The notes: a model not told the origin generated them from the letters alone. A DNA stretch of 64,000 nucleotides from an uncultured Nitrospiraceae bacterium (GCA_964506525.1 CAZDLA010000001.1:155047-219046); one strand, 5' to 3'; counted from the stretch's first letter, positions 6,550 to 63,627 are shown. Numbers and translations: made by a program.

Positions 6550-6589
6550 TGACAAAAAGAAGGCAGGAGTTGCCTGTCAACTCCTGCCT
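6550..6589 (-). terminator. Rho-independent terminator downstream of the giant ORF
   Basis: Perfect 11-bp stem AGGCAGGAGTT / AACTCCTGCCT (6561-6571 / 6579-6589) with a 7-nt loop. On the minus strand it is followed by TCTTTTTGT. It sits 25 nt after the stop codon at 6614. Confidence 0.65.
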
Positions 6590-6613: not shown

Positions 6614-9600
6614 TTAAGGCACAATCGTAAATGCCTCATCACTTGCATCAGAAGTCAGGGTTAAGCCCTTTGAATCCTTCAGCACAATCCTCACCTTACA
6701 GGTTGTCGGTGTTACTACCGTCGGCACTGTCCAGTCATAGAGACCGGGATTGCCCGTTATAGTTATAGCCGGTCCTGCAGGAGCGCATGGTGCTCCTGCA
6801 TTGGTGATGAATTCCACTGCTGCAGACGTTGGCGGCTTCTTCAGCGTGGCGGTATCCCAGAGAACCCGATACACTCTGCCTGATTTGAGATGTTCTCCAC
6901 CATTAGGATACATAAGCCAGACCAGATACATGCTGAAGGGGTCTGAGGTGTCTTCACCTATGACCCCTCTTGAAGCGTTGTATGCCGTTATCTTGAACTG
7001 CATGTTGTCCAGATTGGTCGCAGGGGCCTTCTTCATGCTCCAGCTGAATGAGGTGCCGGTGGATGTCTTTGGCAACTTGATCGCTGTCCATGCTCCTCCG
7101 CTGCCGTAGGATAGCCCTATGCTTGCGACTGTGGGGTCTTTTTCCCATCTGACCGTGTAAGGGGTTCCTGCTTTTATGTGCTCCCCTCCGGTCGGGCTCA
7201 GGAGTCTTACTATCGCAGGGGCTGATGGTGTGTATTCATATGCTCCCATGTCTGGTGCTATGCCCTTGGGTCTGGTTACACCAAGGATATCGTCTGCAGG
7301 TGCCCCTGAGGCTGTGCCTTTGTCTATACAGGGGGATATGGCATCAAGCCGGTAGTCATGGCCTGCAGTATTGAGGAACTCTGGGTCATAGCTGGTATTG
7401 CTGCCAAGGTTGGTGTATGTGCCGTTTCCTATGTTTGAGTTCTGTGCTCTTATCAGAGCGGTTCCACCGGTTGATGCACTGGAGTAGACGTCTGGACCAT
7501 TGGGGTCTGTATTGCCCCAGTTGATGTCGTTCTTCTCTGTTATGGTTACAGATCCTGAGCTTGAGGCTGTGGCATGTATGCCTCCGCCAGCTGTACCAGG
7601 GGTTGCTGTGTTGTCTGTAAGGGTGTTGTTGACCATGTTGACGGTTACAACGCTTCCTGTACCTGTTGCCGTTGCCTTGATGCCACCGCCGCTGTCGGTG
7701 GCGTTGTTGCCTATGATAAGGCAGTTCTGTATGGAAAGATTGATGGTTGCACTGCCTGAGGCTGAGGCATGGATGCCTGCACCGTCATCTGCACTGTTTG
7801 ATGAGATGATACAGTTTGAGAGGCTGATATCTGCCAAGCCTGAAGCAGGGGCGATGTTCATACCGCCGCCTGTAGAAGCATCCCCGTTGAAGAGAGTGAG
7901 GTTGTCGATGGTTACTGTGGCACTGGTTGTTATTGAGAGGACACTGCCTTCCCCGACTCCGTCGTTGTCCGTATCGCCATTGAGGATGGTGATACCTGGG
8001 TCTGCTGTCTGCGTGGTGAAGGTGTTGTTCCAGCCGCCAGAGAGATTCAGGGACTTGTTGAGAAGGATGTTCTGACGATAGGTGCCTTGGGCGATTCTCA
8101 GGGTATCACCAGAACCGGAAGCATCTATACCCTGCTGAACGGTCTGATAGTCGCAACCTAATGCGCAGACAGTTCTTTCTGTCCGGCTGTCATACGTCCT
8201 GCTCAGCTGCGATGCTGCTGTGTTGCCGTTGCTTGCAGCATCAACTGCCACTCCTGCTGCCACGTCGACTGTCACTGCTCCATTGCCTGCAGGTGTTACA
8301 TTGAACGTATAGGTCGTTCCACTACCGCTGAATCCACTGATCGAACCATTGCCTAATGTGACATCCCCACTCACAAACCCTGTAACTATCTTGCTGAAGG
8401 TCACTGTCACAGGTATTGGTGAGACATTCGTCGGATTGGCAGCTGATGAGGTTATCGTTACCGAAGGCTGAGCACTGTCATACGTCCTGCTTAGTTGCGA
8501 TGCTGCTGTGTTGCCGTTGTTGGCAGCATCAACTGCCACTCCTGCTGCAACATTCACTGTCACTGCTCCATTGCCTGCAGGTGTTACGTTGAACGTATAG
8601 GTCGTTCCGCTTCCACTGAATCCACTGATCGAACCATTGACCACGGTAACGTCGCCAGATACAAAATCGGTCACCGTCTCGCTGAAGGTCACGGTCACAG
8701 GTATTGGTGAGACATTCGTCGGATTGGCAGCTGATGAGGTTATTGTTACTGAAGGCTGAGTACTGTCATACGTCCTGCTCAGCTGTGATGCTGCTGTGTT
8801 GCCGTTGCTTGCAGCATCAAGCGCCACTCCTGCTGCCACGTCCACCGTTACCGCTCCATTGCCTGCAGGTGTTACGTTGAACGTATAGGTCGTTCCACTT
8901 CCACTGAATCCACTGATCGAACCATTGCCCACGGTAACATCCCCAGATACAAACCCTGTAACTGCCTCGCTGAAGGTCACTGTCACAGGTATTAGCGAGA
9001 TATTCGTCGGATTAGCAGCCGATGAGGTTATGGTTACTGAAGGTGCCACGGTATCAGAAGTCGTCAGATTGAAGTCTGTCTTTATACTATCCTCTTCTGC
9101 CAGATAAAATGACTCTGTCCTGCTGCCATATCCGGTGGCTGTAACATTGATATTGCACTGGCCTGATGCAACACCTTTTATATAGTAGCCATTCGGCGGC
9201 AAAACAGGCACGGTGATACCGTTTATCGTTACGATCGCATTGAGCAGAGGCTGATTCGTCAGCGCATCACGCAGATATCCGTAAACAAGTCCGCCCGTCG
9301 CATTTGTGTACGTAATCCTGAACCTGTTTGCATTGGAGCTCGTCACTGACATGCCCTTGTTGTCTATGGCCTCGACTTCCCAGTGATAATATTCGTTGAA
9401 TCTGAACAAGTCTGTTCCGTCAGCCCTCAGCTCCTTTGTTCCGTCCAGGGTAAACCACTCCCACCTGATCTGCTCATACCTCATGATCTCTGGGCCTTTG
9501 AACCCTGCATTGTCTTCATAGATTTTTATGGTATACGTCACAATATCTGCAACATCAGGGTCTGTGGACTTTGTCCATAAAAACGCCATGAGGCCGTCCG

Positions 9601-12600
9601 TGATAGTGCTGTTATTTTCTGGGGTAATCAGGCCGAAGGCCCCGGGCGCAAGGTTAGTTTCTGTGTTTACATACAGTGTCCCTGTAACTGGCGGCAGTAT
9701 GTTCTGGTTTCTGTCCTTCGCATAATAGTAGATGGTGTATTTGCCTGCCTCATCGAGCCCTGTAGCGCCGCTTGAGGGTATTGCAAAGTCCCACCTGCTG
9801 CCTTCTGCCCCTGTGTACGCAATCTTCTTCAATTCTAACGAAATCTGTCCCGTGCCGCCTGTGCCTGTTATGTTATACGACGGCTTCTTCAACTCTATCC
9901 ATGTCGTGTCCACGTACGCAGGATCTATCATGCCGAAAGCGGTTTTGCCGCTGCCGGACATGACTGTAATCGTGGGCATAATCTGATCCCACTTCACCAT
10001 CGCAGGGTTAGTGCCGAGGCCCAGGCTTATACCCGAGGCCAGACCACCGTCTTCCTGTCCCTTAACATTCATAGTACTGCCAACACCGTCTCCATTGTCA
10101 TCAAGCAGAGGGTTTTGGCGTGAGCCCACGCCGTTGTTCTGCTTGGTATTGCCATTATTGCTCGGGCAATTAGTCGTACAGGGGAGCTGCTGCCTCGTTG
10201 TCGTTGCCGCATCCTTAAAGGCGTTGATCAGCGTTTCCCCCTGAGACAGGCTACTAAACAGATAGTACACAAAGAACTCCCCATAGGTTGTTGAGCCGAC
10301 AGTCGGGCCCTGCAGGGACTGCTCATCTTCGGAACTGCTTGTGATTATTATCCTTTTCTTGCCCGGCTTTGACAGGGCGCTTACGAACTTGCCTGAATAG
10401 CAGAAACCGTTGATTATTATAATTTTGAACTGATCGCGGCCAGGAATTGAAGTGTCGTTTTGGATCGATGCCTCAAGATCGGTTATCCAGCTGTCAAGCT
10501 CTGAAGGCGTGATGTATTCGTCAGTAACCTGGTCAGGCACAGGCTGATCAATCAAAAATCTGCCTTCGCCAGCGTCGCTGCCGTGATCCATCAATACAAG
10601 GTAAAGCGGAGCAACTCCATTGTCTTTGATCCGGTTGAAAGCCCACGTTTTGATCGCAGCAGCAACATTCTGCTTTGTTGTCAGAGCGTCCACAATGCCC
10701 GTATAACCGGGGCCCGTCTCATAGCTCATATAGTAGATATTGTTATTAATCGGGTCGTCCTTAAAGCCACGGCTCAACATCTTCTGCCTGATATCGTCAA
10801 GGCTGCGGGTATAACTTGCCCTGTATGTGTTGTTGCTGTCGCCTTCAAGCAGAATTGCATACCCTGCTGAATTGGCAACATTAAAGTCAATTGACGCGGA
10901 TTCGCTCATCGTAAAGTTGCTGTTTCCGGCAAATGTCGCTTTTGCATACCAGATTCCGGTCTTGGTGCCGAATTGATTAAACGGCACATTATATCTGCCG
11001 TACGCATCAGTCATTGCGCTTACACTGTGCTTGATGCTTTCCGGGTCAGTAAATTCAATGGTAACCGGCATATTGAGAAGTGAACCATTAGGCACTGTTG
11101 TGGCAGTCCTGAGTGTGCCGGTTGCTGTTATCGAGCCAGTTGGAGATATACTTGCAGCGTTAAGAGACATTGAAAGACTTGTATCCACCCTTGTTACCGC
11201 GAAGTTAGCGGATGCTGTTTTTGAGTTATACAGGCCGTTTCCGCTGAAAGTTGCTGTAACACTCCAATTGCCTGCAATGTCGATCTTTGCAGCATCCACA
11301 AATGTCCCATAATTACCGCTGCTGTTTGTTGACGTACAATCGCCGCTTACCGGAGTAGAAGAAGGAGCGGTGAAACTGAGGCATATCTCGGCAGGGTAGA
11401 CCGAGCCGCCTGTCGATGCGTTAGTCAGTCTGCCGGCTATGCTGACGCCCTGACCAAAAGACGAACTTTGGGTCGGAGTAACCGTAAGGAGCGTATTACT
11501 TAAATTAGGAGCCTTCACGGTTATGGTGTGAGTTCCAAGCCCCCAACTCTCGCTCGGTGAATCCGTAAATCCCGAAGCAGTGATAGTATAAATCCCGGAA
11601 TTGCTATCTTTATAGAGAAAAGTCGCTGAGCTTGAATCTGTTTCAATAAACGGCAGAAGTGAACTGAAATAATCTCCCCCCGTCGAGAAAAGGCCGGTCC
11701 CTGAAGACGAAAATACATATATCTGTGTACGTGAGGTTGCCTTACGCGTCACATCATAATCGTCTATGATCTTCGCCTTGAGCCAGTCTGACGCCACTCC
11801 CTGCTGGACCTCCCATAAATATGAAGGGTTGACACTTTCCACTACGAGCCTTCTGTAGTTAGGGTCGTAAATTCTCATGGAATACTGCTTTGATGCGCTG
11901 TGGCTGGTGCTATCCGTAACCTGTATCGTAAAGATATAGGTCCCTCTCGTTGTCGGTGTTCCGGTAATATTCCCATCAGTGTTAAGGGTCAAACCAGCTG
12001 GCCATGAGCCTGTTTTTGTAAAGGTGAACGGCCCAATGCCGCCCGCTATCACGACAGATGACGAAAATAAAGTGCCTTTGACTCCTGTGCCATCTCCTAT
12101 GACAGTTGTGGTGATGCTGAGCGGTGCTGCCACGGTTACGATTACGTCCCTGAACGCTGTCAGTCCGCCGCCCGTGGCAGTTATTCTGACCGTGTAAGAA
12201 CCCGGTATCGTTGTAGTGCCAGGCGTAAAGGAAAGTGTGGCTATAACGCCGGCAGGTGTCGGTGTAATCATTGTCGGAGATATACTTATGCCAGCATTAA
12301 GAGGCACTGTACCATGCCAGGCATAGGTGAGAGATACAGCCTGGTCGAACCCGCCAAAAGATGTCAGGGCAAGATTCGCCTGCCGGGTTTCCCCCTGGAC
12401 CACACTGAAGTTGTTGGCAGTAATTGTAAAGCCCTGAATGGTATACGTTGGTGCAACAACTCCACCCGGATTACCATTGCTGTCAATTGCAAAGAATTTA
12501 AGGGTTGTGGTTGTGGATATGGTTATCGGTGTTGCATAGACAGTTGAACCTGCGGTCGGCTCGCTGCCATTGGTAGTGAAATAGATTGTCGCGCCCTGCT

Positions 12601-15600
12601 CAGTTGAAAGAGTAACAGTCTGGGCAGAGGTATAGGTTCCTGCCGGCACTGACGGCGTGACTGTCGGGCCTGTGGTGTCAAGCGTAATGTCATCGCTATA
12701 CACAACTGACCAGTTGCCCAAGGTGTCTTTGAATTTGACGTACACCGTACGGATACCGTCAGGGCCGGAGGCCAGTGTCCAAGGCCCGGGATTGGTTGCA
12801 TACGCAACTTCTGAAGCACCGGTGAATGACGCATCATTGCTGATCATCATCGTCGCGACCCCGCTTGGATCAGTGGCAGAGAGAGCGAGGCTTACAGAGG
12901 TAGAGTTGGTCGTCGCCGCACCATTGCTTATCAAGATAGTATCCGCACCAGGCGTGTACAGTTCGGCTGAACTGTGCTTCGTATTCCCCCACGGACCATC
13001 AGCGCCACCCGTTATAAGAACTTTACCATTCAGGAGAAGCACTGATTTCTGCGCAGTTCTTGCATAATTCATATTTCCAGTCATTGAAAAGGTCCCTGTA
13101 GCCGGATCATATATCTCTGATGAATTAAACGCACTCATAGAAGCCCCTGATGATGCATTGCCACCCGTGATAAGAATCTTTCCGTTCGGAAGTGATGTTA
13201 CATCAAAAATACGTCTGGCGACATTTAAACTTCCCGTTGCCGAAAATGTCCCTGTTGCTGGATTATATATTTCTGCTGAACTGAGATAGTCGGTACTATT
13301 ACTTCCACCAGAAACCAGAACTGTACCATTGGATAAGAGAATGGCTCTATGCGACTCTCTTGCAACACTCATGGAACCTGTTGCGGTAAACAAACCGGTA
13401 GCAGGATCATAGAGTTCTGCACTGCTAAGATATCCAAATCCTCTCGCAACTCCACCGGTAATTAATATTCTTCCATTAGGCAAAAGAGTAGCAGTATGCG
13501 AGTCTCGTGGAGTTACCATGGAACCAGTCTGTGTGAAAGTTCCTGTCGAAGAATTATATATCTCTGCGACCTGGGGGTTCGTATTTGATTCATTGTAACC
13601 ACCAATAACCACAACGTTACCGTTTGAGAGCAAGGTCGCTGAATGCACGCCACGCTTATTTGTCATGCTCCCGGAAGCAGTAAATGCATTTGTGACAGGA
13701 TCATATAGTTCAGAGGAAGTATGAAAGCCAACATAAGGAATTTGGCCTCCAATTATAATCACGTCACCGTTTGAAAGCAGAGTGGCCGTATGTACAACTC
13801 TCTGAAGCGACATATTACCTGATGCGGTGAAATTCCCGCTTGCTGGATCATATGTTTCAGCAGTATTTACCGCATGCTCGCCCGTGTCTTCACCGCCGAC
13901 AAGCAATACTTTACCACTGCTCAAAGTGGTTGCAGTGTGCTCTGTTCTTGGCGCATTCATGCTCCCTGTTGCCGCAAAGGACCCAGTGCCGATGCTGCTA
14001 CCTAAAGGCCCTGTCGTATCAACAGTCACCGTATAACTGCCTGAGGTTGACCAGTTGCCTGTGTCATCACGCTCCTGAACGTAGAGCGTGTGTGAGCCGT
14101 CAGACAATCCCGTTAAAGGCGTAAATGATACCGTCGTTGTCTCGGTCGCTCCGCTTATTAAATTACTGCTGTTGAGTTTGTAACGGAATGTCCCGTTACC
14201 ACCGCCGTTAGGACTCCATGTCCATGTCGGTTTGTTATTGCTCGTGAGAGCTGTAGCGCTTGTGACTGTCGGCGCTGTCGGTGCTGCGTTGTCCACCGTA
14301 AAGGTTGCGCTTGGCCCTGCTGCTGCGGTCGGATTTCCCGCTGCATCGCGGCCAGTGCCTGAGGCAAGGCTAATCCCTAATGTTCCGTTGCCAATGATGC
14401 CTGAGATAGTAACCGTCCTCGTGGTATTGCCCGTCCCACTTACGGCAACGGTGCCGTCGGCTGTGCCGGTCTTGTTCAATGTGATGTTGCCCGGCGCAAG
14501 AGTAATCGTGTCGGCTCCGGTGTAGGTAGTTGTATAAGTAACATTATTATTACTTGTTAAAGTTGCAGAAGGGGCGCTTAGCTCCAATGTCGGCACTGTC
14601 AGATCAAGCGTGATCGTGTCGCTATACACGGATGACCAGTTGCCAGCTGTGTCTTTGAATTTAGCATAGACTGTCTTTTCACCTTCGCCTGAAAGAAGCG
14701 TCCATGCCTTACTCACAACATAGTTTTCCTCAACCGCGTCTGTTAAGTTTGAATCATTGCTTACCATCATCTTTGAGACACCATTAGCGTCAGAGGCGGA
14801 AAGACTGAGGGTTACGGATGTGCTGTTGGTGGATGCTGCGCCGTAATTAATGGTTACACCGGTTCCAGCGCTATTTGAAAAACCACCTCGCACCGGCCAG
14901 ACACTGGGACTGCCGGCCGTTTTAACGCCGTCGCCAAGATTTCCATTGGCCATACTAAAGCCACGAGCATTGTTAGTTGCATAAGCGTAGGTAGAAGATG
15001 ACCAGTACAGGTTAGCCTGCGCGTTCACGTTGCTGAAGCCTTGTCCGTTAAGCCATGCCGCCGGTGTTGATATGTAATTTGTCGGCAGGCTTGCCAGTTC
15101 AAGAATATTGGGAAGTCTCCAGTCGCCTGCTGCAGAACCGTCACTCAGTCCGCAACTGCCAGAAGCAAGGTTATTTGCTGATGATAATGCAGCACTCCAG
15201 GGTTGAACTCCAAAACAATTTGCATTTTTTAGCCATAGCAGACCTGTGAGATTATCTGTCACTGTGCCGTTATTATTATCCGTAAATCTTGGGCTCGGCA
15301 CTGCAATTCCCTGTGGGATACTCACAACGTCTGACCAGGCGTTTTTATTCCATGTAATACCGTAGACCTTGTCCGTAACACTGCTACCATTGTCAGTAAA
15401 GGCTGGGCTTGTATAGTCAAGACCTGCCTGCAACGCACCGTCATCACGTGTGCCATAACTCGTGGTCTGCCCTGTCTTGGCTATTACTCCAAAGCCTGCG
15501 CCTGTTGGCCCGGTCTGGTCGATTGTCCATGAATAGCTTGCAGGAGTTAGGTCATAATTGCCTGCCGTGTCCTTTGCCCTTACCTGGAATGTATGAGCTG

Positions 15601-26248: not shown

Positions 26249-26343
26249 AACCCCTCCAAGGATTCAGAAAATTACTTTCTATTTGTTATCTATAGACGAA
26301 ACGAGAGACGCTTTCTTACATGTCCAAGGAATATTTTTTCGTG

Positions 26344-26380
26344 AAAACAAAAAAACCCATGCCTCTATGGCTATGGGTTT
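26344..26380 (-). terminator. Terminator / attenuator-like hairpin between the outer-membrane barrel gene and the giant ORF
   Basis: The minus strand reads AAACCCATAGCCATAGAGGCATGGGTTTTTTTGTTTT: an imperfect GC-containing stem followed by a T-run. It lies about 200 nt after the stop at 26576 and about 95 nt before the ATG at 26248. Confidence 0.45.
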
Positions 26381-26575
26381 GTCAGTTCAAATATATATAA
26401 ATATCTTGTCATCTACTTCGGCAGCCCTGCAATCCTTTTACATCCCCCAAGGACCAGAAGCTTTGCGCCCTGCCCTTCCAGGCAGTTTGCTCTTATCGGT
26501 AGCGATTCTGGCTAAAAGAGTATCACAACCTGCTAATAATCCGCAATAAATAAGGCATTTGAGTTTATAATAATC

Positions 26576-27904
26576 TCATTTGAAATAATAAATGACCGAA
26601 GCCATAAGCGTATGCTGTTTGATATCCACTTTTCTGCCGGCAATAAAAGGGATATCAGCGCTGACGTTGTTGCCAAACCGAAATTGATATGCGATATCAA
26701 AGGCGAATCTGCCGCGCGCATACCCGGTTCCAAGCGAAAAGCCGTAATAATCATCCAGATATCCTGTCTGTGGTTCGGGGTCGTAAAACAGTCCGAATCT
26801 TGCAGGAATAACATACTTATCCTTGATAAACAGATATTCTGTTCCGACCCTGATCTGCGTTGTATCCTTCAGCCTTCCTTCACTTATGGGTTTTGAGGAG
26901 ACCGGGTTTATCGTATTTCCGGCACTGTTTTTCAATAAGAACGTCGACCAATCAGTCCGGTAAACATCAAGCGCAAGCGTCCATTTGTCAGAATGACGGT
27001 AAGAGAGCCCAAGTCCATACGAAGCAGGCATCTGCATGGTGAAACGCTCTGAGCTATGGGCAGAGTCCTCCGAATACAGTGGTATGTCCAGCCAGTTCTG
27101 GCTCGCAAATTCAGAGGTCTTACTCCGGAGCCTTGCGTCAAACGCGGTTTTATATACTCCGCCAAGAGTGAGGCGCTCATGAAAATTCCACAAAAAACCG
27201 ATATGCGCGTTTATGCCCTTGAACTCGACTGTTTTTTCTATCCGGTCTTTCATAATAACGGAGCCAGGAGGAAGATTACCGCTCTTGGTAGATGAATAGG
27301 TGCTCTGCCAGCCGTTGTTTCCGATATAGTCTCCCCAGAAATTCAGGGTCGCCCCAAGATAAAAACCGGGTGATACCTGCACAGCCATCGCAGGTGAGAG
27401 CGCATAAAGATATCCCTGCTGTTTGAATTTAATATTATCGTAAAGCTTGTCCCCGCCTACATCCCATGTGTAGTTAAAGTTGACATCTTTGTTCATGTCA
27501 TATAACCGCTGGTAATTAAGAGAAACAATCACGTTCCTTTTAAACAACTCAAATGGGTAGGCAATACTGAAATAATTTATGCCGTTTGCATCCATCCGGT
27601 TTACAGATTCAATTTCAGGGTGGATATCAGAGCTATAAGTCTGCTGCCTTGCAAATAATGAATAAACAACCGACATCTCAGGCTTTTCGAGTTGGACAAG
27701 GCCGGCCGGATTCCACGATGCAGCAGTTGCATCATCGGCCACGCCTATGAAAGCGCCGCCCATTCCCATAGCCCTTGCGCCCGAGCCCACAGGATTAAGG
27801 GACGAAGATATCTCTATCAGCTGCCCAAAAGCAGACGCAGGAACAATTGCAATCAAAAATAGTATTAACCGGCAAACTCTTACCCAACTCACTTGTAAAT
27901 TCAC
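26576..27904 (-). CDS. FadL / PorV-like outer-membrane beta-barrel protein
   Basis: 442 aa. GTG start preceded by GAGGAGG. Signal peptide ...IAIVPASAFG|Q. N-terminal hatch-like motif GSGARAMGMGGAFIGVADDATAASWNPAGL typical of FadL/TodX/PorV-type barrels. The remainder has alternating beta-strand character and ends in an aromatic residue (YYFK). Confidence 0.7.
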   Translation of the reverse strand: MNLQVSWVRVCRLILFLIAIVPASAFGQLIEISSSLNPVGSGARAMGMGGAFIGVADDATAASWNPAGLVQLEKPEMSVVYSLFARQQTYSSDIHPEIESVNRMDANGINYFSIAYPFELFKRNVIVSLNYQRLYDMNKDVNFNYTWDVGGDKLYDNIKFKQQGYLYALSPAMAVQVSPGFYLGATLNFWGDYIGNNGWQSTYSSTKSGNLPPGSVIMKDRIEKTVEFKGINAHIGFLWNFHERLTLGGVYKTAFDARLRSKTSEFASQNWLDIPLYSEDSAHSSERFTMQMPASYGLGLSYRHSDKWTLALDVYRTDWSTFLLKNSAGNTINPVSSKPISEGRLKDTTQIRVGTEYLFIKDKYVIPARFGLFYDPEPQTGYLDDYYGFSLGTGYARGRFAFDIAYQFRFGNNVSADIPFIAGRKVDIKQHTLMASVIYYFK

Positions 27905-28012
27905 AAAAACCTCCTCATCCTTTGATACTTATTGGGTTGCTTAGACTGTAGTCTGCCAGGTATAGGCTATAGACTAAACACCTAAATACTACACACCTGT
28001 TATACCCAACCA

Positions 28013-29992
28013 TCACTTTGTCACGATCAGATCTTTGACCACTATCTCCTGAGGTGACGGCTTATCAAGAATCTTTGCCTTTGAAAAATCTTCCCGAATC
28101 TCCTCGAATCTGCCCTCGGCCAGCTTGATCGTATCAAAGCCTAATGACTTGCCCGTTACCGGATGCTTGAGCTCCTTGCCTCTGCGATACACAATGACCG
28201 CAGCGTCCTTGTGTATTTTGACCTTATTGCCGATGTCAGTGTAAATATACCCCTTGTCCTTATTGATCACTATGCCCTCGACAAGCGGGAATGCAACGGC
28301 GATTTTCGCAGCAAGACCTGCCATAAGCTCTTTTACCGAAGGGGCGCTCTTATCCTCAGTGAAGACATCGCGCACTTCCATGACCTGAGAGGTTTCGGTA
28401 TTGATCACGCGGGAGACGATCTCTATCGACTTCTGGTCCTCACGCACGGTAGTGGCCACAATCGCCTCGGCAGACATGAGCCTGCCGATCCTTATTGAAT
28501 GTTCGGGGTCAGTGAGCTTTGCCTTTGTGAGCTTCTGCTCAACCATCACCTGCTCGAGCTTGGAACGCTCTATCATATTAAACCGTTTCTGGTCTGTAAA
28601 AGCCCCGGCAAGATAATCATAGGCAAGGGTCATGAGATCCGTGCTCTTTTTCGTATCAAAGGGGAGCAGGCTGAGACTCATACGCGCCCCGTTCTGCAAA
28701 ACTGAAGGCACATGCTTCGTTATTGTGAATTCTGATACTGCCTTGTTGCCGCTGCTGTCAATTGCTTCGACAAGAATCCTGTTTCTGCCCTCGCTGAGTG
28801 TCAGCATCTTGCTGAAAAAGACCTTTCTGCCATTCTTTGATGATACCTCTTTACCGTTTATCAGGATCTTCTCAACGCTCTTATTGTCTGAAACTTCGCC
28901 ATCGATGTAATAGGAATTAAGAAAGACAAGAGGTATATCAGTCGGGTCTTTAAGTTTAATTTCAGGCAGTTCCTTGTCAGATGAGAGAATTCCCGGGCCA
29001 TTGAAGGCAAGCTGCACCCAGGGTTCTTTGCGTTGAAATACTGCAACTTCCCTGTCAACGTTAATGTCAGCATTTGTTTCATTGCCGAGCGTATCAACTG
29101 CGCGAATGCTGACCATTCCCTTTAAATCCACAGGCACTGTCAGATCGAAAGACTGGTTCTTCCTTTTCCCAGCTTTAACATCCTGTTCATTGATTACTAT
29201 GCTTTGAATTCCGGTGCCGTCTTCGACTTCGCCCATGATCCGTGCAATTTTCTTTCCATCCTGCACTTCAGTATTTACTCCAGTGATTACAATCGACGGT
29301 CCTTGTCTATCGACTATCACAAGAAGCGTCTTATCAGAAATATTACCCATGAGATCTTCAGCCCTGACCAAGATGCGGTTCTCGCCATCAGCGAGACTCA
29401 CGGCCTGTTCGAATGTCATCTGCTTGGCTGCCAGTTCGATATCAACGGCATGACTATTGACCGTCAACTTAGCAACAAGACATTCCCCAGAGACAGATCC
29501 CCTTATGACAATTGACTCGTCCTTTGTTGCCGAGTTTTCAGCAGGGGCATTCAGGGCAATTGCCGGCGGCTTTAATCCTGTCTGCTTCTGCCGAATCATG
29601 ATCGCCTTGCGTACCCTGTTTAGATAGAAAAATGCCTTTGCAGATCCTTCACTTTTTATGGACTCTTCGAGTTCTGCTGATGCACGATCAATATCACCGA
29701 GAGAAAGATAGGCAACGCCAAGCTCCCGGTGGGGAAAATAATCGACAAAATGCATGCCGTAGGTCCTGGCCATACGCTGGTCTTTTTCGCGCAGGGAAAG
29801 TGCTTTCAAAAGGTCAGTAACTGCTTCCTGCCATTTCCCCAGTTCAGCTTTTTCAACTGCACGGTCATAGTAATTCCACCATTTGCCTCTGAAGGTTCCG
29901 CTGTCATCAGCAGCAAGCACTGGAGGAACAAGAAAACAGAAGATAAGGACTATTGAAAAGGTTTTTTTCAATATGCAGGCTATCTCTTTCAT
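28013..29992 (-). CDS. Secreted TPR / Ig-like / CsgG-LpoB-like periplasmic protein
   Basis: 659 aa. Sec signal (VPPVLA|AD). TPR-like helical N-terminal region (aa 35-125). Three beta-sandwich (Ig-like) segments. aa 437-570 carry a CsgG/LpoB/FlgO-like motif (LSLLPFD...RFNMIERSKLEQVMVEQKL...IGRLMSAEAIVATTV), followed by an SH3-like beta domain. The start overlaps the upstream stop (ATGA at 29989-29992). Confidence 0.6.
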   Translation of the reverse strand: MKEIACILKKTFSIVLIFCFLVPPVLAADDSGTFRGKWWNYYDRAVEKAELGKWQEAVTDLLKALSLREKDQRMARTYGMHFVDYFPHRELGVAYLSLGDIDRASAELEESIKSEGSAKAFFYLNRVRKAIMIRQKQTGLKPPAIALNAPAENSATKDESIVIRGSVSGECLVAKLTVNSHAVDIELAAKQMTFEQAVSLADGENRILVRAEDLMGNISDKTLLVIVDRQGPSIVITGVNTEVQDGKKIARIMGEVEDGTGIQSIVINEQDVKAGKRKNQSFDLTVPVDLKGMVSIRAVDTLGNETNADINVDREVAVFQRKEPWVQLAFNGPGILSSDKELPEIKLKDPTDIPLVFLNSYYIDGEVSDNKSVEKILINGKEVSSKNGRKVFFSKMLTLSEGRNRILVEAIDSSGNKAVSEFTITKHVPSVLQNGARMSLSLLPFDTKKSTDLMTLAYDYLAGAFTDQKRFNMIERSKLEQVMVEQKLTKAKLTDPEHSIRIGRLMSAEAIVATTVREDQKSIEIVSRVINTETSQVMEVRDVFTEDKSAPSVKELMAGLAAKIAVAFPLVEGIVINKDKGYIYTDIGNKVKIHKDAAVIVYRRGKELKHPVTGKSLGFDTIKLAEGRFEEIREDFSKAKILDKPSPQEIVVKDLIVTK

Positions 29993-32685
29993 CGTGCTGC
30001 CGACTTTTCACGAACCTTGGCGCCTAAGGCAAGAGGTCCCTTCCCTGAGGCGAGAGATGCCAATGAACTGTCCTTGCCGGCGTCGACCACCTCGAGTTCT
30101 CCGACTGCAACATACATGTCGCCACTTGTGCCTAAAGCTGTTACAACCTCAAGTTTGTCACCTTTTTTCAGGCCATGGCTTTGCCCAATGTTCAGCTGAT
30201 ATCTGTCACCTGTCACGGCAGTTACTTTGCCGCGCAGAGGATATTCAGTCTTTATGGCCTCAAGGATTTTCATGCTCAGGTCATCGGCAGCATCCTTACC
30301 AAGCTCTTTAGACTTGGATTCCACCGTGATTACCTTCTTCACAGCAGTTGTTTCCGTATCTATGATCCGGAGCATGACGATTTGTCCGTGTTCATCCGGC
30401 ATAATGCTGCCGGTGACCATAACTCGGGCAGAAAGAACTCTTCCGACTCTTAGCGCAGTTGCCTGATCAGCAAGCGCAGAATTACTCAGCTTGAGTTCCT
30501 CAAGAAGCCGGTTTATAAGTTCTCTTTCGACCACATTGATGCGGCCTCCGGCTTGAAGTGTCTGTGAGGTATAGCCGATAAGTTTTTCGATTCTCGAACT
30601 ATCAGCCTTGATATCCATGAAGACCAGACTGAGCGGCATGGAACTCCAATTATCGCCCGGCTTGAGAGCATCAAATTTATTCTCCCGGTATTTCTGCGAC
30701 AGTGACGCGACCAGTTCATCAATCCTTTTGGAGTCCGTCTCTTTCTGCATAACCTGCTGCGGCTGATTGGCGGCTTTTTCAGGTATTTCTCCTGACCTGG
30801 TCTTCATATAGAAACCTGCTGCGCCAGCCAGAAGGAGCATGACAAGGCCGGCAACCATGAACACGTTTTTTTGTTTCTTTTTTCCTGGGAACTGCACGAC
30901 ATCTTCACGGTGCCTCAGGTCAGCTGTTGCCAGCGTCTCTCTCTCCACCCTCTCTTCTGCCTTTGTCTCCCGCAGTTCAACCTCTGGCATTACATACTTT
31001 GTGGTCGGATCACCATAGAGCATGTAACTTGCCCATACAATCATATCCTCTCCGTATTTGTCGATAAGCGCCTGGCGCGCCAGCCTCATAGCTTCGCCGA
31101 TTGAACTGCCCTGAAGCAGGTGACGGTAGAAATGTATGGCAAAGTGATAACCTGCCTCATCCGGTATCTCCCAAAAGGTGCCGATATAGTGCTGGACGCC
31201 GGAAATAAGGAAAGCATTGGCAAGACCAAATATCTTTGTCTCATAGTGTTCATCAAGTCGCCACTCATCTGTCTGGCCTGTCTGGCAGGCATTGGAAAAG
31301 ACGAGGGCAGGCATCGGCATAATACCTGACATAGCGATGATATTTTCTGCGCTCAGTTTACCGTTTTTGAGAAGCCAGCCGCTATCTTCAGGTTTCAGGG
31401 CATTGTGATCAGCATGACCTGCATAATGAACAATATCAAAGTTTCTGATCTTTGCCTTCACATAATCAGTCTTGATGTCTGTTGTTTTCAGGGAGACATC
31501 AAGCCAGTCATCTATGCTCTCAATATCGTCCTTGATCCTGACTCCTTCGGTATAGGCAGCCTGAAGATCACCTCTCGCGTCTGCGAGAATCTGCATTTTA
31601 AGTGGCTTGCCAATGGTCCGTATAACCGCGGAAACGCGCTGCCGGGTGCTTACTGCCCGACCAAGGCTGAAACGCTGGCAGAGGAAATTCTCGCCGTCAT
31701 GGAGCAGTTCCCATGGTATATGGACCAGATTGTCGTCTATGCTGATCAGCATATGATTGAAAACAGTCTTCGCGATCCTCTCTTTGATCTGAAGAGGCAT
31801 CAGCGCGTCGAAAAGCAGCCGCCCATATTCCTTCAGCTTGATGAGGAGATCATTGCCGATCTTGCCTCTCTTGTTAGCCCTGTTAAGTAGATCGATTATA
31901 TTTTTTGTATAGTTTCTGATCGTGTCCTGACTGTATTTGATCTCTTCATAGTGCCTGACTGTCCGCTCCTCGCCTTCAGCCTTCTCAAATCCGCTGATCT
32001 TCAGCTTTTCTCCAACAACCGATGCCTCTATAATGAGCGTTCCCTCTCTTTCGGCTGTGGAAGACAGCTTTCTGATCTTGCCCATAGAAACAAGCTCATC
32101 ATGCCAGATGACACGGAAGACCCTCAGAGCATCCTTCTTCCCCTTTACTTCTACCAACTTTTCATGTCTAAAGATAAACTCATCGTTGTTCTTAACTGCC
32201 CTGTACAGGTCTTCAGTAATAAAGATTTCATCGCCATCCGCAAGCGCCTCAACACGGCTCGCGACATTTACAATGTCACCAAAAACATCTGACTCTTCAA
32301 CAAGACCATCACCATAATTCATCCCGATTCTGACATGGATCTGTTCCCTATCGGCCTTGTCGCTGTTGTAGATCTTCAGCCTCCTCTGAATGTCAATCGC
32401 AGTTCGGATGCTGTCCGAAGGAGTATGGTATGCAGACATGGTTGCATCACCGATGGTCTTGATCAGGATACCGTTATGCTCCTTAATAATTGGCAGCACA
32501 ACCTCGTTATGTCTGTGCACCATAGCCCTGCCGGCTATATCGCCACGGGTGTCATACACTGATGTCGAGCCCTTGATGTCTGTGAACATTACCGTGATCT
32601 TTTTAGTGAACTTGGCATGAATCTGCGCATCAAGCTTGTCTCTTTCTGCCAGGATTCTGCCGATATCGGTTTTATTCTCTTCCAT
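29989..32685 (-). CDS. Fusion protein: class III adenylate/guanylate cyclase + CHAT (caspase-like) protease + TM helix + periplasmic CsgG/LpoB-like module
   Basis: 898 aa, with AAGGAG upstream of the ATG. Cyclase, aa 28-195: MFTDIKGST, KTIGDA, GDIVNVASR (metal Asp and transition-state Asn/Arg present). CHAT, aa about 215-560: IVHYAGHADH (His424 codon at 31414-31416) and LVFSNACQTG (Cys467 codon at 31285-31287). Single TM at aa 608-627, preceded by KKKQK (cytoplasmic side). Periplasmic aa 683-898: RINVVERELINRLLEELKL...VGRVLSARVMVTGSI. Confidence 0.8.
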   Translation of the reverse strand: MEENKTDIGRILAERDKLDAQIHAKFTKKITVMFTDIKGSTSVYDTRGDIAGRAMVHRHNEVVLPIIKEHNGILIKTIGDATMSAYHTPSDSIRTAIDIQRRLKIYNSDKADREQIHVRIGMNYGDGLVEESDVFGDIVNVASRVEALADGDEIFITEDLYRAVKNNDEFIFRHEKLVEVKGKKDALRVFRVIWHDELVSMGKIRKLSSTAEREGTLIIEASVVGEKLKISGFEKAEGEERTVRHYEEIKYSQDTIRNYTKNIIDLLNRANKRGKIGNDLLIKLKEYGRLLFDALMPLQIKERIAKTVFNHMLISIDDNLVHIPWELLHDGENFLCQRFSLGRAVSTRQRVSAVIRTIGKPLKMQILADARGDLQAAYTEGVRIKDDIESIDDWLDVSLKTTDIKTDYVKAKIRNFDIVHYAGHADHNALKPEDSGWLLKNGKLSAENIIAMSGIMPMPALVFSNACQTGQTDEWRLDEHYETKIFGLANAFLISGVQHYIGTFWEIPDEAGYHFAIHFYRHLLQGSSIGEAMRLARQALIDKYGEDMIVWASYMLYGDPTTKYVMPEVELRETKAEERVERETLATADLRHREDVVQFPGKKKQKNVFMVAGLVMLLLAGAAGFYMKTRSGEIPEKAANQPQQVMQKETDSKRIDELVASLSQKYRENKFDALKPGDNWSSMPLSLVFMDIKADSSRIEKLIGYTSQTLQAGGRINVVERELINRLLEELKLSNSALADQATALRVGRVLSARVMVTGSIMPDEHGQIVMLRIIDTETTAVKKVITVESKSKELGKDAADDLSMKILEAIKTEYPLRGKVTAVTGDRYQLNIGQSHGLKKGDKLEVVTALGTSGDMYVAVGELEVVDAGKDSSLASLASGKGPLALGAKVREKSAAR

Positions 32686-32696
32686 AAGGGGCTCCT

Positions 32697-33335
32697 TTAT
32701 TCCAGGCTCAGCGTCACAGCGCCGAACAGGTGGTCTTTTTTCCTGATTCTTAATGAATAACTTCCTTTGCCAATCTCCTCAAAAAGCACAAATCCATGTT
32801 CAACAAAATACGACGCAAGTTCCCTCTCGCCTGAGATGAGCTCTATCCTGATCCCTTGAGACTGGAAGCCGGCTGTGGTCGGCACGACAGTGACCTTAAT
32901 ATTGCAGAGCTCTGCTTCTATCTGCTCAATATCAATCTCAGCATTCATTTTCTCAAAGGTCTTCGTAATCACAGCCATCCGTGCGCTGACAGCCTTGCTG
33001 TTTCTCAATTCAAATGCAGGTGCAGGATATGACAACTGAAGGGAAGGAGAGCTCTTTATAACTCTGAGCGTCTCTTTCATGAGGCTTATAACAACATCAA
33101 AGGGAGATCTGCCTTCCCCGTACAGGGCTGCAGCTCGAATGATCGCCCGCTCAGGTATATCTTCTGTATCGTTATCATGCCTGCCGGTCAGTCGCCTGAG
33201 TGCAATCAGTTCCCTCAGGCAATCCGGGCATTCTGCCAGCTTCTGCTCAACAACCTCTCTTCTGTCTATGGCGAGCTTTCCGTCCATATAGGCGCCGAGA
33301 TCAAATTCAGTCAGGCAGCCTCTGTCTTTATGCAT
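32697..33335 (-). CDS. Anti-sigma factor (zf-HC2-like N-terminus, no predicted TM helix)
   Basis: ATG at 33335 is preceded by AAGGAGG (the track GTG at 33356 is less likely). N-terminus CLTEFDLGAYMDGKL....REVVEQKLAECPDCLRELIAL resembles the anti-sigma sigma-binding domain with CxxC. The position immediately downstream of the ECF sigma gene supports the call. The C-terminal 120 aa are beta-rich with no hydrophobic span. Confidence 0.6.
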   Translation of the reverse strand: MHKDRGCLTEFDLGAYMDGKLAIDRREVVEQKLAECPDCLRELIALRRLTGRHDNDTEDIPERAIIRAAALYGEGRSPFDVVISLMKETLRVIKSSPSLQLSYPAPAFELRNSKAVSARMAVITKTFEKMNAEIDIEQIEAELCNIKVTVVPTTAGFQSQGIRIELISGERELASYFVEHGFVLFEEIGKGSYSLRIRKKDHLFGAVTLSLE

Positions 33336-33390
33336 AAGTTCCTCCTTGCAAGTCACTTCTATGCTTATAGACGGAACAGATCAGCATTTC

Positions 33391-33990
33391 TTACAGAACC
33401 CCAACAGATTTCTTCAATTTCTCAGCCAGTCGGTTCTTCCGTGAGTATACAGTTTCAGCACTAATGCCCATAATTACCGCAATTTCCTCGGGAGAAAGTC
33501 CCTTTTCCAAGACCAGGCGAATAATAAGGCTATCTTGTGCACCTAATTGGGTTATAGCCGCATTCAGTCTCTCGTCACGTTGCTTTTCAATAAATAGATG
33601 TTCAATGGACTTTTCTGATGCTGGGATAGACTCATAAATGTCACGCTCCCCATCTTTTGTCTCCACGAACAGCTGACTTTTATCCTGTCTCATATGATCT
33701 ATAGCTGTTCGCGAGGCAATGATGGTCAGCCACGTAGAAAGTGAGCAGGAATTTTCGCTCCTGAACTGGCGGAGCTTTTTGAAGTCATTATCAAGAAGCG
33801 AAACGAATACGGCATTGAATATGTCCTCGAGGTCTTCCTCTGTATGCCGAAATGAATAAGAGAGGAATGTCTTTCTCAGCGTGCCCCAAATAAGTTTTGC
33901 ATAGCGTCTCACAAAAAGCTCCCAGACAACCCCATCCCCTTCATTGAGGCATTTTCTGAGAAGCTCGCTTTCGCTTAAAACGTCATTCAT
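33391..33990 (-). CDS. ECF-type RNA polymerase sigma-70 family factor
   Basis: 199 aa. Region 2 (DLEDIFNAVFVSLL...LSTWLTIIASRTAIDHMR) and region 4 HTH (GLSPEEIAVIMGISAETVYSRKNRLAEKLKK). No region 1 or 3, as in group IV sigmas. Confidence 0.85.
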   Translation of the reverse strand: MNDVLSESELLRKCLNEGDGVVWELFVRRYAKLIWGTLRKTFLSYSFRHTEEDLEDIFNAVFVSLLDNDFKKLRQFRSENSCSLSTWLTIIASRTAIDHMRQDKSQLFVETKDGERDIYESIPASEKSIEHLFIEKQRDERLNAAITQLGAQDSLIIRLVLEKGLSPEEIAVIMGISAETVYSRKNRLAEKLKKSVGVL

Positions 33991-34116
33991 GACATAGCCT
34001 ACTTATGGAACGTATAACCAATGCTCAGCGTTAGCGCAATAAGCAGTCAAACGGTAACAGATTTCTATAATATCCCCCACGGACAATCGGAAATTCTTGC
34101 TGGTACAGGTCAGGCA

Positions 34117-34145
34117 ATATTAAGCAGATAAAGGAAGAATGTCAA
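34117..34145 (-). promoter_or_regulatory. Sigma70-like promoter upstream of the ECF sigma operon
   Basis: The minus strand reads TTGACA (34145-34140), a 17-nt spacer, then TAATAT (34122-34117), about 125 nt upstream of the ATG at 33990. A second TTGACA lies at 34172-34167. Sequence match only. Confidence 0.4.
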
Positions 34146-34221: not shown

Positions 34222-34308
34222 TGGTACCGAAGACCGGATTTGAACCGGTACGAGGTTGCCCCCGAGGGATTTTAAGTCCCTTGTGTCTGCCAATTCCACC
34301 ACTCCGGC
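34222..34308 (-). tRNA. tRNA-Leu (anticodon UAA)
   Basis: The minus strand reads GCCGGAGTGGTGGAATTGGCAGACACAAGGGACTTAAAATCCCTCGGGGGCAACCTCGTACCGGTTCAAATCCGGTCTTCGGTACCA. It has a 7-bp acceptor stem, anticodon loop CTTAAAA (TAA), a long variable arm, a GGTTCAAATCC T-loop and an encoded CCA. Confidence 0.9.
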
Positions 34309-38994: not shown

Positions 38995-39273
38995 CTAACA
39001 GGCTCCGCCTGCTATAGCAGGAACAATCGAGACCTCATCGCCGTCCTTTACCAGTGTTTCCTCGGCACTAAGGAAGCGTATGTCCTCATCGTTGAGATAG
39101 ATGTTCACGAACCTGCGAATCTTGCCATTCTCTGAAACTCTCTCTGCCAGCCCAGGGTAAGACCTGTCCAGCTCATTCACCAACGCAATGACTGTTCCCG
39201 CTGTTCCATCGACCTCTTCCTTTCCCTGTGTCAGTTTCTGAAGCGGTGTGGGTATTCTTACTTTCACTGCCAT
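38995..39273 (-). CDS. MoaD/ThiS-family sulfur-carrier protein with GG-AC C-terminus
   Basis: 92 aa with a beta-grasp pattern (VKVRIPTPL...DGDEVSIVPAIAGGAC). The di-Gly codons are at 39004-39009, followed by Ala-Cys and then the stop. Confidence 0.7.
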   Translation of the reverse strand: MAVKVRIPTPLQKLTQGKEEVDGTAGTVIALVNELDRSYPGLAERVSENGKIRRFVNIYLNDEDIRFLSAEETLVKDGDEVSIVPAIAGGAC

Positions 39274-39289
39274 AACTCATCCCTCCTTG

Positions 39290-40531: not shown

Positions 40532-40635
40532 CGCACACCTCTCCTGCTTAAAGTCCCTTATTTTACTGCAAACGTGGAATAATTGAAAGTATCAGCAGTC
40601 GTAACACAACCGGTGCTGTGCCGGCAATAGTGCGG

Positions 40636-63282: not shown

Positions 63283-63627
63283 GGGGGCGAATGGTCTCGA
63301 CGGGGGTTATGAGACTCATGTGGCATGTCGTGGCTCCATCCCCACGCAAAAAGATGGAACAAACACAAACGCCAATAACGAACTGGCACTCGCTGCTTAA
63401 TTAAGCAGCACGCTCCTTTGGGATTGCCTGCGACCCTTAGATAGCGTCAATCAGCGGGCTGGCTTTCAGGTGCGCTCCCTGCCTGAAGGCGAGACTCAGG
63501 GAGATAGGAGTTTAGGAAGCCTGTCAGCCGGCGAACTGGATTCCGAAGCTGAAAATGACTGACTAAACATGTAGAAGCATGAGAGTAGTACTTTCGGACG
63601 CGGGTTCGATTCCCGCCGCCTTCACCA
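63283..63627 (+). ncRNA. ssrA: tmRNA (ssrA)
   Basis: The 5' GGGGGCG pairs with the 3' CGCCTTC-A-CCA, including the G3:U pair. T-arm GCGGGTTCGATTCCCGC. Tag reading frame GCC AAT AAC GAA CTG GCA CTC GCT GCT TAA (63371-63400) gives ANNELALAA. The stop lies in the palindromic helix GCTGCTTAATTAAGCAGC. Confidence 0.95.

Follow-up and report, generated by a model that had tools for sequence, protein, structure and literature searches.

Do six neighbouring genes that share one orientation also share one function? The question was raised by a 64,000-nt stretch of DNA from an uncultured Nitrospiraceae bacterium (GCA_964506525.1 CAZDLA010000001.1:155047-219046, the whole of which is called the window hereafter). 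It carries genes for a sigma factor of the extracytoplasmic function (ECF) type, an anti-sigma factor, an 898-aa transmembrane protein joining a nucleotidyl cyclase to a CHAT protease domain, a secreted 659-aa protein with tetratricopeptide repeats (TPR), an outer-membrane barrel of the FadL family and a giant protein of 6,544 aa. The original prediction took all six for a single undescribed envelope signalling and display locus, read from one promoter, in which the cyclase-CHAT protein would release the sigma factor and so drive the giant gene. The gene content, domain identities, topology, catalytic residues, synteny and a riboswitch could be observed directly, and the balance tips slightly towards a reading in two parts: the five-gene set would be a trans-envelope signalling module, in which clustering leads the CHAT protease to cut the anti-sigma factor and free the ECF sigma factor, and the giant gene would be a separate unit gated by cyclic di-GMP (c-di-GMP). 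The signalling core of five genes does exist, is widespread and has apparently not been described.

To begin with, a check of the open reading frames (ORFs) confirmed that all six lie on the minus strand, with the positions and spacing that had been claimed for them. The sigma factor gene (33391-33990, 199 aa) is followed by the anti-sigma gene (ORF 32697-33356; gene 32697-33335 from the ATG at 33335, a start backed by homologues; 212 aa), the cyclase-CHAT gene (29989-32685, 898 aa), the gene of the TPR protein (28013-29992, 659 aa), the barrel gene (26576-27904, 442 aa) and the giant ORF (6614-26248, 19.6 kb). The sigma stop codon is separated by 55 nt from the anti-sigma ATG, the next gap measures 11 nt, the 898-aa and 659-aa genes share an ATGA stop/start overlap of 4 nt (29989-29992), and gaps of 108 nt and 327 nt precede the barrel gene and the giant ORF, respectively. 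Since the 327-nt gap holds a riboswitch and a terminator, the six genes form at least two regulatory units. The locus is read as two linked units, the five-gene module (33990-26576) and the giant gene with its leader (26501-6614).

The five genes of the first unit are a conserved co-directional module, met again in hundreds of uncultured bacteria from sediments and groundwater. A total of 763 relatives of the 898-aa protein were returned by a word-indexed search (E ≤ 1e-10), many of them full length, and a scan of GTDB with one genome per species found at least 557 stretches encoding a relative of the CHAT protein. The best 80 loci were analysed by tblastn with the window proteins, ORF clustering and a gene-order table. 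In these CHAT-seeded loci, the cluster formed by the CHAT protein and its TPR paralogue appeared in 79, the anti-sigma gene in 50, the barrel gene in 49 and the sigma gene in 45, the next most frequent neighbour family being found in only seven; moreover, the module genes were co-directional throughout. The gene order in Nitrospirota was mostly sigma, anti-sigma and CHAT, then barrel and TPR protein either way round, and many Desulfobacterota presented barrel, TPR protein, sigma, anti-sigma and CHAT. Loci of Geobacteraceae and of Rokubacteria/Methylomirabilota had barrel, TPR protein and CHAT, with no adjacent sigma pair.

Reciprocal searches led to the same set of genes. All three loci reached from the anti-sigma factor showed the module, including that of Candidatus Magnetomorum HK-1, in the order large TIG protein, small ORF, TPR protein, sigma, anti-sigma and CHAT, with the barrel gene next in two of them (L082 and L083). 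A metagenome scan with the 659-aa family found at least 468 relatives, of which 80 loci were kept, mostly short contigs; here the CHAT gene was adjacent in 57, the barrel gene in 48, the sigma gene in 39 and the anti-sigma gene in 33. The misses in this set were mostly contigs of 2-5 kb, together with three well-flanked loci without a CHAT gene (L107, L146 and L149). Overall, the module was found in Nitrospirota, Desulfobacterota (including the cultured Desulfonema magnum), Geobacteraceae, Methylomirabilota, Omnitrophota, Planctomycetota and Nitrospinia. Thus, the linkage to sigma, anti-sigma and barrel genes, for which a gene-neighbourhood check had been set beforehand, held in the 80 CHAT-seeded loci and in the reciprocal searches. 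Furthermore, the claim that no characterised system has this composition agrees with full-text searches of the literature, by which no paper describing such a module was found; an automated mention in the group tables of the 2021 ECF classification is possible.

Several loci were distinguished by further features. Two paralogous whole modules, each with a propeller-barrel fusion, occur in one metagenome-assembled genome (MAG; L043 and L064, MFD01721.bin.3.168). In two Desulfobacterota, the module is followed, at a distance of a few genes, by the gene of a Ser/Thr kinase of 1,112-1,142 aa fused to an FGE-sulfatase domain (L018 9625-12963 and L026 18905-22333). In two Nitrospirota, a cyclase-less CHAT receptor has directly downstream of it a further CHAT protein (L061 7909-11328 and L073 13917-17162), which measures about 1,100 aa and has a signal peptide and numerous TPRs. 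Finally, sigma, anti-sigma and CHAT genes were found on a 3.7-kb contig binned as a Candidatus Hydrothermarchaeota archaeon (L059), for which mis-binning is likely.

By its profile matches, the gene at 33391-33990 is that of an ECF (group 4) sigma-70 factor with the sigma2 and sigma4 domains only (Sigma70_r2 and r4_2; TIGR02937 at 91.6 bits against a cutoff of 42.9). The product of the adjoining gene is predicted to be a soluble anti-sigma factor of the ZAS type (zinc-finger type) with a C-terminal immunoglobulin (Ig)-like domain, and a hydropathy scan found no transmembrane (TM) helix or hydrophobic segment in either protein. The zf-HC2 match of the anti-sigma factor was weak (19 bits, below the cutoff of 22.2). 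Its family presents an N-terminal helical domain with the motif C...H-x3-C-x2-C, seen as HLxxCxxC in most members, the window copy having K for the motif His; a precomputed PF13490 match was present in 11 of 30 family hits, and the family profile matched RslA and RsiW at E 0.004 and DdvA (8rlz) at E 0.22. Word-index searches gave five matches with the single sequence and 30 with a profile, all the named homologues among the latter being annotated 'hypothetical protein', and the extent of the family was revealed by an exhaustive profile search: 847 clusters at 50% identity (E ≤ 1e-10), nearly all of 205-250 aa and matching end to end. No sequence match was found between the anti-sigma profile and Csx30 or CalpT.

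The AlphaFold2 (AF2) model of the anti-sigma factor, built on an alignment of 29 sequences, has a confident beta-sandwich at residues 113-212, with a predicted local distance difference test score (pLDDT) of about 90, preceded by residues 51-112 with pLDDT below 50. Foldseek returned nothing for this model at E ≤ 0.001, the C-terminal domain being a generic Ig-like sandwich. Within the otherwise variable, low-confidence linker, residue R111 (codon 33003-33005) is Arg in 40 of 44 homologues; the position before it is V, L or I in 39 of the 44, and that after it is mostly G, S or N, giving the consensus [VLI]-R-[GSN].

The 898-aa protein was recognized by Pfam as a cyclase (Guanylate_cyc, 79.6 bits) and a CHAT protein (128.8 bits, cutoff 24), with a partial match to CsgG/LpoB/FlgT_C. 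Its AF2 model (mean pLDDT 79.6) comprises an N-terminal helix (residues 4-26), the class III cyclase (27-195 in the model; domain limits 24-195), the CHAT protease domain (about 250-560), a disordered stretch (569-611), a TM helix (612-626 in the model, 606-628 in the hydropathy scan), a long periplasmic helix (644-668), a FlgT-M/LpoB/CsgG-like alpha/beta domain (685-815) and a small FlgT_C-like beta domain (818-893), the last two also periplasmic. As the single TM helix is preceded by KKKQK, the cyclase and CHAT domains are placed in the cytoplasm and residues 640-898 in the periplasm. Residue conservation was counted over 76 homologues, in all of which the CHAT dyad H424 and C467 and the cyclase residue R144 were invariant, with D36, K76, D80 and N140 nearly so (at least 90%). 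The CHAT domain is accordingly predicted to be a caspase-like peptidase of clan CD with an intact His-Cys dyad. The cyclase model superimposed on the adenylate cyclase Ma1120 with a TM-score of 0.92 and a root-mean-square deviation of 1.7, consistent with a class III nucleotidyl cyclase; K76 and the D residues fit ATP, and the product would be cAMP or cGMP. About a quarter of the homologues had no cyclase. A Foldseek search with the whole model was dominated by cyclases and gave nothing on the periplasmic module. The disordered juxtamembrane linker contains an L-R pair at residues 590-591 (window about 30913-30918), conserved as L in 53 and as R in 60 of the 76 homologues. This pair is similar to the [VLI]-R in the linker of the anti-sigma factor, and self-cleavage could take place there.

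The 659-aa protein, the barrel and the giant protein have Sec-type signal peptides, none with a lipobox. The signal peptide of the 659-aa protein ends in VLA/AD, and Pfam found in this protein TPRs, Ig-like repeats (Glucodextran_B/Big_13) and a partial CsgG match. As had been proposed, its periplasmic module is paralogous to that of the 898-aa protein (29% identity over 141 aa, E 1e-14). The label of CsgG/LpoB-like fared less evenly. Weak matches to LpoB and CsgG do exist (E 0.2-0.3 in a profile search of the PDB, with CsgG at E 0.3), and for the C-terminal beta domain there is a TsaP match (3jc8, E 5e-6); a CsgG-type secretion channel was rejected, given that the Pfam match spans only positions 33-99 of the 210 in the profile and that a lipobox is missing. 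The module is better described as a putative interaction module of the FlgT-M/LpoB type than as a curli-type channel.

The barrel scored 64.4 bits with Toluene_X (FadL; cutoff 29.7) over profile positions 24-385 of 421, had TodX as its best PDB match, and shows a signal peptide and an NPA-type N-terminal motif (SWNPAGL). It is predicted to be a 14-strand outer-membrane barrel of the FadL family; its scores were below the NCBIfam cutoffs for BamG (74 vs. 250) and PorV_fam (49 vs. 90), so that it is not assigned to PorV/PorQ or BamG. No TonB-dependent receptor or FecR domain was found in any of the five module proteins by profile searches. The domain calls of the original prediction were thus nearly all right, with TIGR02937, CHAT and Toluene_X above their cutoffs, Sigma70 and Guanylate_cyc matched and zf-HC2 weak, and its compartments agreed with a single TM helix in the 898-aa protein, a soluble sigma/anti-sigma pair and three signal peptides.

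The giant gene is different in its regulation. A hairpin had been reported in the 327-nt gap before it; the hairpin is present, and what had been missed is that it forms the terminator of a c-di-GMP-I (GEMM-I) riboswitch. An Rfam scan of the whole window placed the aptamer in the leader of this gene (26417-26501, minus strand), where RF01051 is matched over all of its 87 model positions (1-87) with E 2.5e-9 and a score of 60.4 bits, the gathering score being 35. About 36 nt downstream of it lies an intrinsic terminator (26344-26380, minus strand; AAACCCAU-A-GCC / GGC-AUGGGUUU, then a U-run), the presumed expression platform, which folds at -17.3 kcal/mol with a z-score of -4.4, none of 200 shuffled sequences folding as well. 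The 327-nt leader is 91% identical to that of L001, the closest relative of the window, which is above the 83% of the adjacent barrel gene. Judged from this leader, the giant gene is predicted to be a unit gated by a c-di-GMP-I riboswitch with a terminator, the ligand of which would be c-di-GMP or a related dinucleotide. Class III cyclases make cAMP or cGMP and not c-di-GMP, so that the riboswitch does not read the neighbouring cyclase. The chain formerly drawn from cyclase and CHAT through the sigma factor to the giant gene was therefore left without support, as the gene has its own riboswitch and terminator and no ECF-type promoter was found. Among 163 loci, a regular-expression search found the GEMM-I core only in L001, and when seven loci with large neighbours were scanned with Rfam, a single variant aptamer came up (L046); since aptamers are this rare among the other loci, riboswitch control of the large partner is not general. 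That variant, a c-di-GMP-I-GGC riboswitch (L046 241-325, plus strand; RF03167, 67.3 bits), heads a Geobacteraceae cluster comprising a 1,752-aa protein, a barrel, a TPR protein and a CHAT-cyclase gene.

Neither is the giant protein a conserved member of the set, as had been assumed. Pfam and NCBIfam identified in it Kelch propellers, Lcl_C, Laminin_G_3 (LamG) and Big/Ig-like domains, with a choice-of-anchor Q domain near the C-terminus and a signal peptide ending in AFA/AD. The whole ORF has a syntenic counterpart only in L001, and because the whole protein is conserved only there, with shared domains elsewhere, the sixth gene is a variable partner and not a core member. A co-directional neighbour of at least 800 aa was present in 45 of 162 loci, and ten of 91 barrels carried an N-terminal extension of 225-1131 aa (L004, L037, L042, L043, L058, L064, L139, L114, L053 and L063); in L032 and L053, this arrangement is divided between two adjacent genes. 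Sortilin/BNR propellers were matched in the two barrel fusions that were scanned (L004 and L043) and in the unfused neighbours of L011 and L034, the neighbour in L045 carries NHL propellers, and those in L068 and L081-L083 are TIG proteins.

Moreover, residues 5127-5396 of the giant protein (10061-10870, minus strand) form a putative legumain-like domain (Peptidase_C13, clan CD) with the dyad H5222 (DHG) and C5283 (CYSG), the H, G and C-x-S-G being invariant in the alignment of the family (A7). The Pfam Peptidase_C13 match appeared in nine of the 11 aligned members, that is, in nine of the ten homologues of the window copy (best E 1.4e-13); the window sequence alone misses it at E ≤ 0.01, and the family profile matches legumain structures at E 2e-6. 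In total, 18 large ORFs adjoining the module have this domain, one in the window and 17 at other loci. A C-terminal sorting signal common to the large neighbours was considered and rejected, no shared C-terminal tail being found. The display locus that had been proposed thus survives in a looser form: large propeller proteins recur by the barrel and the C13-like domain recurs in 17 loci, with a weaker link between the giant protein and the module than claimed. The giant protein is one of a varied class of large secreted proteins with beta-propellers, often with a legumain-like domain as well, which recur beside the barrel or fused to it, and it is probably the surface partner of the barrel or the ligand-binding part of the input.

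How, then, might the five genes work together? The module probably relays a signal from the outer envelope to the sigma factor through a membrane-anchored caspase-like protease; the course that follows, with its binding partners, its cleavage step, its mode of activation and its regulon, is inferred. The barrel and the secreted TPR-Ig-FlgT-like protein would constitute the input side in the outer membrane and periplasm, and would engage the paralogous periplasmic module of the single-pass 898-aa protein. Clustering of the latter would then activate the cyclase and CHAT domains by induced proximity. Class III cyclases are obligate dimers. For CHAT-type proteins, self-association has a precedent in SAVED-CHAT, which is activated by oligomerisation (bioRxiv 10.1101/2023.06.23.546230). 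As both families can be switched by self-association, clustering was proposed as the mode of activation; moreover, a rigid relay is unlikely, since the CHAT domain is joined to the TM helix by a disordered tether of 40 residues. Once active, the CHAT protease would cut the soluble anti-sigma factor within its disordered linker, probably after the hydrophobic-Arg pair (R111), which would free the ECF sigma factor, and the cyclase would provide a parallel cyclic-nucleotide output. The protease, being cytoplasmic, cannot process exported cargo, and it is the only obvious route from a periplasmic event to a soluble anti-sigma factor. Furthermore, the well-flanked loci comprised 17 with both cyclase and sigma, ten with the cyclase only, ten with the sigma only and none with neither, a pattern of complementarity that fits two alternative outputs on one sensor.

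Several observations weigh against this reading. The complementarity is modest (p about 0.02 in a one-sided exact test by hand, with counts uncorrected for phylogeny), and contact between the protease and the anti-sigma factor is a matter of inference and not of direct evidence. The CHAT dyad is equally conserved in the Geobacter and Rokubacteria loci that have no adjacent sigma/anti-sigma pair, so that the protease there has another substrate or the pair is encoded elsewhere. A crude enumeration of bipartite motifs revealed no ECF-type promoter motif upstream of 43 sigma genes and only A/T-rich noise, and the same enumeration upstream of the first gene in 60 clusters also gave A/T-rich noise only; with no shared ECF promoter motif, an autoregulated ECF promoter cannot be claimed. 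In addition, the periplasmic module is tentatively identified by weak matches to CsgG, LpoB, FlgT_C and TsaP, its partners being guessed, and the large partner proteins could be located at the surface or in the periplasm. Finally, the giant gene is regulated at least partly independently of the module, the ligand of its riboswitch not being the product of the cyclase.

A bolder version of the relay may be put forward tentatively, although we lean towards doubting it. The 898-aa protein would represent an unrecognised class of single-pass receptor, similar to a death receptor with a built-in caspase, which would be clustered by an assembly of barrel, TPR-Ig protein and propeller-legumain protein, would co-activate CHAT and cyclase, and would have its dedicated soluble anti-sigma factor cut after hydrophobic-Arg, with release of the ECF sigma factor. 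It would correspond, on the side of envelope sensing, to the CHAT/anti-sigma/sigma modules known from type III CRISPR, and could be their evolutionary source; those modules are found in lineages overlapping those of the present one, such as Desulfonema.

Other explanations of the locus have to be set against this relay. Were the six genes chance neighbours, made up of functionally unrelated units, the terminator and riboswitch that set the giant gene apart and the weak promoter evidence would be expected; yet three independent searches showed the five upstream genes linked and in the same orientation across at least five phyla, the set contains an overlap of 4 nt and a gap of only 11 nt, and even the giant gene has a rare domain in common with module neighbours elsewhere. 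This explanation is already contradicted for the five-gene core, and for the locus as a whole we give it almost no credence. The module could also be mainly a machine for the export, assembly or anchoring of large surface proteins, which is the display idea of the original prediction. The barrel and the TPR-Ig-FlgT-like protein would then be an outer-membrane platform, comparable to the holding function of PorV/BamG and the rings of FlgT/TsaP, and the sigma factor, the anti-sigma factor and the CHAT-cyclase protein would report the cargo load as feedback. Such a machine would be in agreement with the ten of 91 barrels that have large N-terminal extensions, two of which were scanned and presented Sortilin/BNR propellers, as well as with the large secreted neighbours in 45 of 162 loci, the FlgT_C and TsaP matches, and the fact that the nearest NCBIfam models of the barrel are PorV and BamG. 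However, the barrel remains under the cutoffs of both models, the CsgG match does not extend to the channel-forming part, a lipobox is missing, and neither an energy source nor a secretin-like component is present in the module. Moreover, the large proteins are not homologous between loci, barring domains such as the C13-like one, and are missing at many well-flanked loci, whereas the signalling genes are the most conserved of the module. An export machine is considered unlikely.

The module could instead serve in defence or cell suicide triggered at the envelope, by phage adsorption or envelope damage, in which CHAT would be the executioner, the cyclase would raise an alarm as in Pycsar and the sigma factor would induce further defences, in a manner comparable to DdvS/DdvA. 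CHAT proteases and sigma/anti-sigma pairs do act in type III CRISPR and CBASS defence, some genomes have several paralogous modules (as in the MAG of L043 and L064), and the cyclase matched Pycsar cyclases weakly in PADLOC (best 31 bits). These last matches, however, reflect generic similarity among class III cyclases, and the window cyclase is closest to the housekeeping-type adenylate cyclase Ma1120, with K76 and the D residues fitting ATP. Searching PADLOC-DB 2.0 revealed no system match, the cyclase having only weak PycC matches (≤ 31 bits) and one to BovA, and the other four proteins none. Besides, no defence genes recur in the neighbourhoods, and the flanks of the window are housekeeping genes. 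A role in defence is thus regarded as quite improbable, and the relay from envelope to sigma factor is retained as the preferred reading.

Regarding the surroundings of the six genes, the tRNA-Leu and the strong terminator between which they had been placed were both confirmed: the tRNA-Leu(UAA) gene lies upstream of the sigma gene at 34222-34308, and 3' of the giant gene there is a terminator at 6561-6589 (minus strand) with a 12-bp stem, seven G-C pairs and a T-run. The evidence for the single sigma70-like promoter is weak. The sequence in question, TTGACA-17-TAATAT (34117-34145, minus strand, upstream of the sigma gene), does no more than fit the consensus, without enrichment of such sequences in this part of the window, where 18 were counted and 13 ± 3.7 are expected. 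Nor is this promoter shared with L001, in which the CHAT protein is 97% identical, the block from sigma to TPR gene 88% and the barrel gene 83%. The nucleotide homology between the two begins at position 34001 (L001 8685), 11 nt upstream of the sigma ATG, and as the tRNA-Leu and the sigma70-like promoter are absent from the shared block, the two genomes differ in what surrounds it. In the window, the locus is flanked by housekeeping genes, namely GalU-like transferase, Lon, ThiL-like and MiaB-like on one side and LeuA-like, aspartokinase, apgM and ThrC on the other. Elsewhere in the window, a transfer-messenger RNA gene with the tag peptide ANNELALAA was found at 63283-63627 (plus strand; Rfam 193.8 bits). 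Two long ORFs are mirrored on opposite strands at 39248-40582 (plus) and 39290-40531 (minus), the latter being a threonine synthase (PALP), which at its N-terminus matches a zinc ribbon of the NinF type, and the former probably a shadow ORF.

ECF sigma factors are among the main signalling systems of bacteria, and their activation is obscure for many groups. If the proposed relay is true, it would add a so far undescribed mechanism at the envelope, in which a membrane-tethered caspase-like protease acts on a soluble anti-sigma factor in parallel with a cyclic-nucleotide output. The module is not rare, with at least 847 clusters of the anti-sigma factor at 50% identity and relatives of the CHAT protein in more than 550 species-level genomes, and its host phyla, on which hardly any genetics has been done, dominate in groundwater and anoxic sediments. 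It also suggests a possible new role for FadL-type barrels, as partners of large secreted proteins bearing propeller or legumain domains. As for the giant adhesin-like gene, the riboswitch corrects its regulatory picture; its leader is like those of other c-di-GMP-I riboswitches, which precede genes of adhesins, pili and surface proteins, and nothing unusual was detected in it.

Among the known systems, the arrangement of outer-membrane barrel, periplasmic relay, inner-membrane protein and ECF sigma factor recalls FecA-FecR-FecI and RseA/DegS/RseP, in which proteolysis of the anti-sigma factor frees the sigma factor. In contrast to these, the present locus has no TonB-dependent transducer, no anti-sigma factor of the FecR type or bound to the membrane, and no site-1 or site-2 protease; its barrel is of the FadL type, its protease caspase-like and the proposed cleavage cytoplasmic. 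The periplasmic module is matched weakly and consistently by FlgT of the flagellar H-ring, TsaP of the ring around the PilQ secretin, LpoB and the N-part of CsgG, although the flagellar or pilus context, LysM, lipoprotein signal and CsgG transmembrane hairpins of those systems are absent here. The host phyla of the module are not known to have type IX secretion. The 14-strand FadL-family barrels PorV (type IX secretion) and BamG (the barrel assembly machinery BAM of Bacteroidota) serve as protein partners and not as lipid transporters (PMC12611786). They share the fold family of the present barrel and provide its nearest NCBIfam models, with scores far below the cutoffs, and, set against them, the barrel fusions found here place a large domain N-terminal to the barrel.

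CHAT proteins have been related to ECF sigma factors before. The group ECF54 has CHAT proteins nearby, but it is actinobacterial and has no anti-sigma factor (PMC8999054). In Myxococcus xanthus, DdvA, the partner of DdvS, is a transmembrane anti-sigma factor with a periplasmic TPR-CHAT domain (PMC11506125), so that both DdvS/DdvA and the present module combine an ECF sigma factor, an anti-sigma domain of the zinc-finger type (putative in the module) and CHAT in one envelope-spanning pathway. However, the CHAT domain of DdvA is periplasmic, lies within the anti-sigma factor and has an incomplete active site, while here it is cytoplasmic, belongs to a separate protein and has an intact dyad, and the anti-sigma factor is predicted to be soluble. 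The closest parallels are found in type III CRISPR systems. In Craspase, the TPR-CHAT protein Csx29 cleaves Csx30, which leads to the release of an ECF-type sigma factor, CASP-sigma (PMC10028731), and CalpL cleaves CalpT, which leads to the release of CalpS, both CalpL and SAVED-CHAT being activated by oligomerisation (bioRxiv 10.1101/2023.06.23.546230). As proposed here, a cytoplasmic protease, which is a CHAT protein in Craspase, cuts a soluble inhibitor of the sigma factor. The input differs, being CRISPR or cyclic oligoadenylate in those systems and a single-pass receptor with periplasmic and outer-membrane partners in this one; furthermore, no cas genes lie nearby, a class III cyclase is fused to the protease, and the anti-sigma factor, which has no sequence match to Csx30 or CalpT, is predicted to be of the ZAS type with an Ig-like C-terminus. 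By analogy, the five-gene set may be regarded as a variant, not described before, of the protease/anti-sigma/sigma logic of type III CRISPR systems, and it provides a testable link between the CRISPR-associated CHAT/sigma modules and ordinary envelope sensing.

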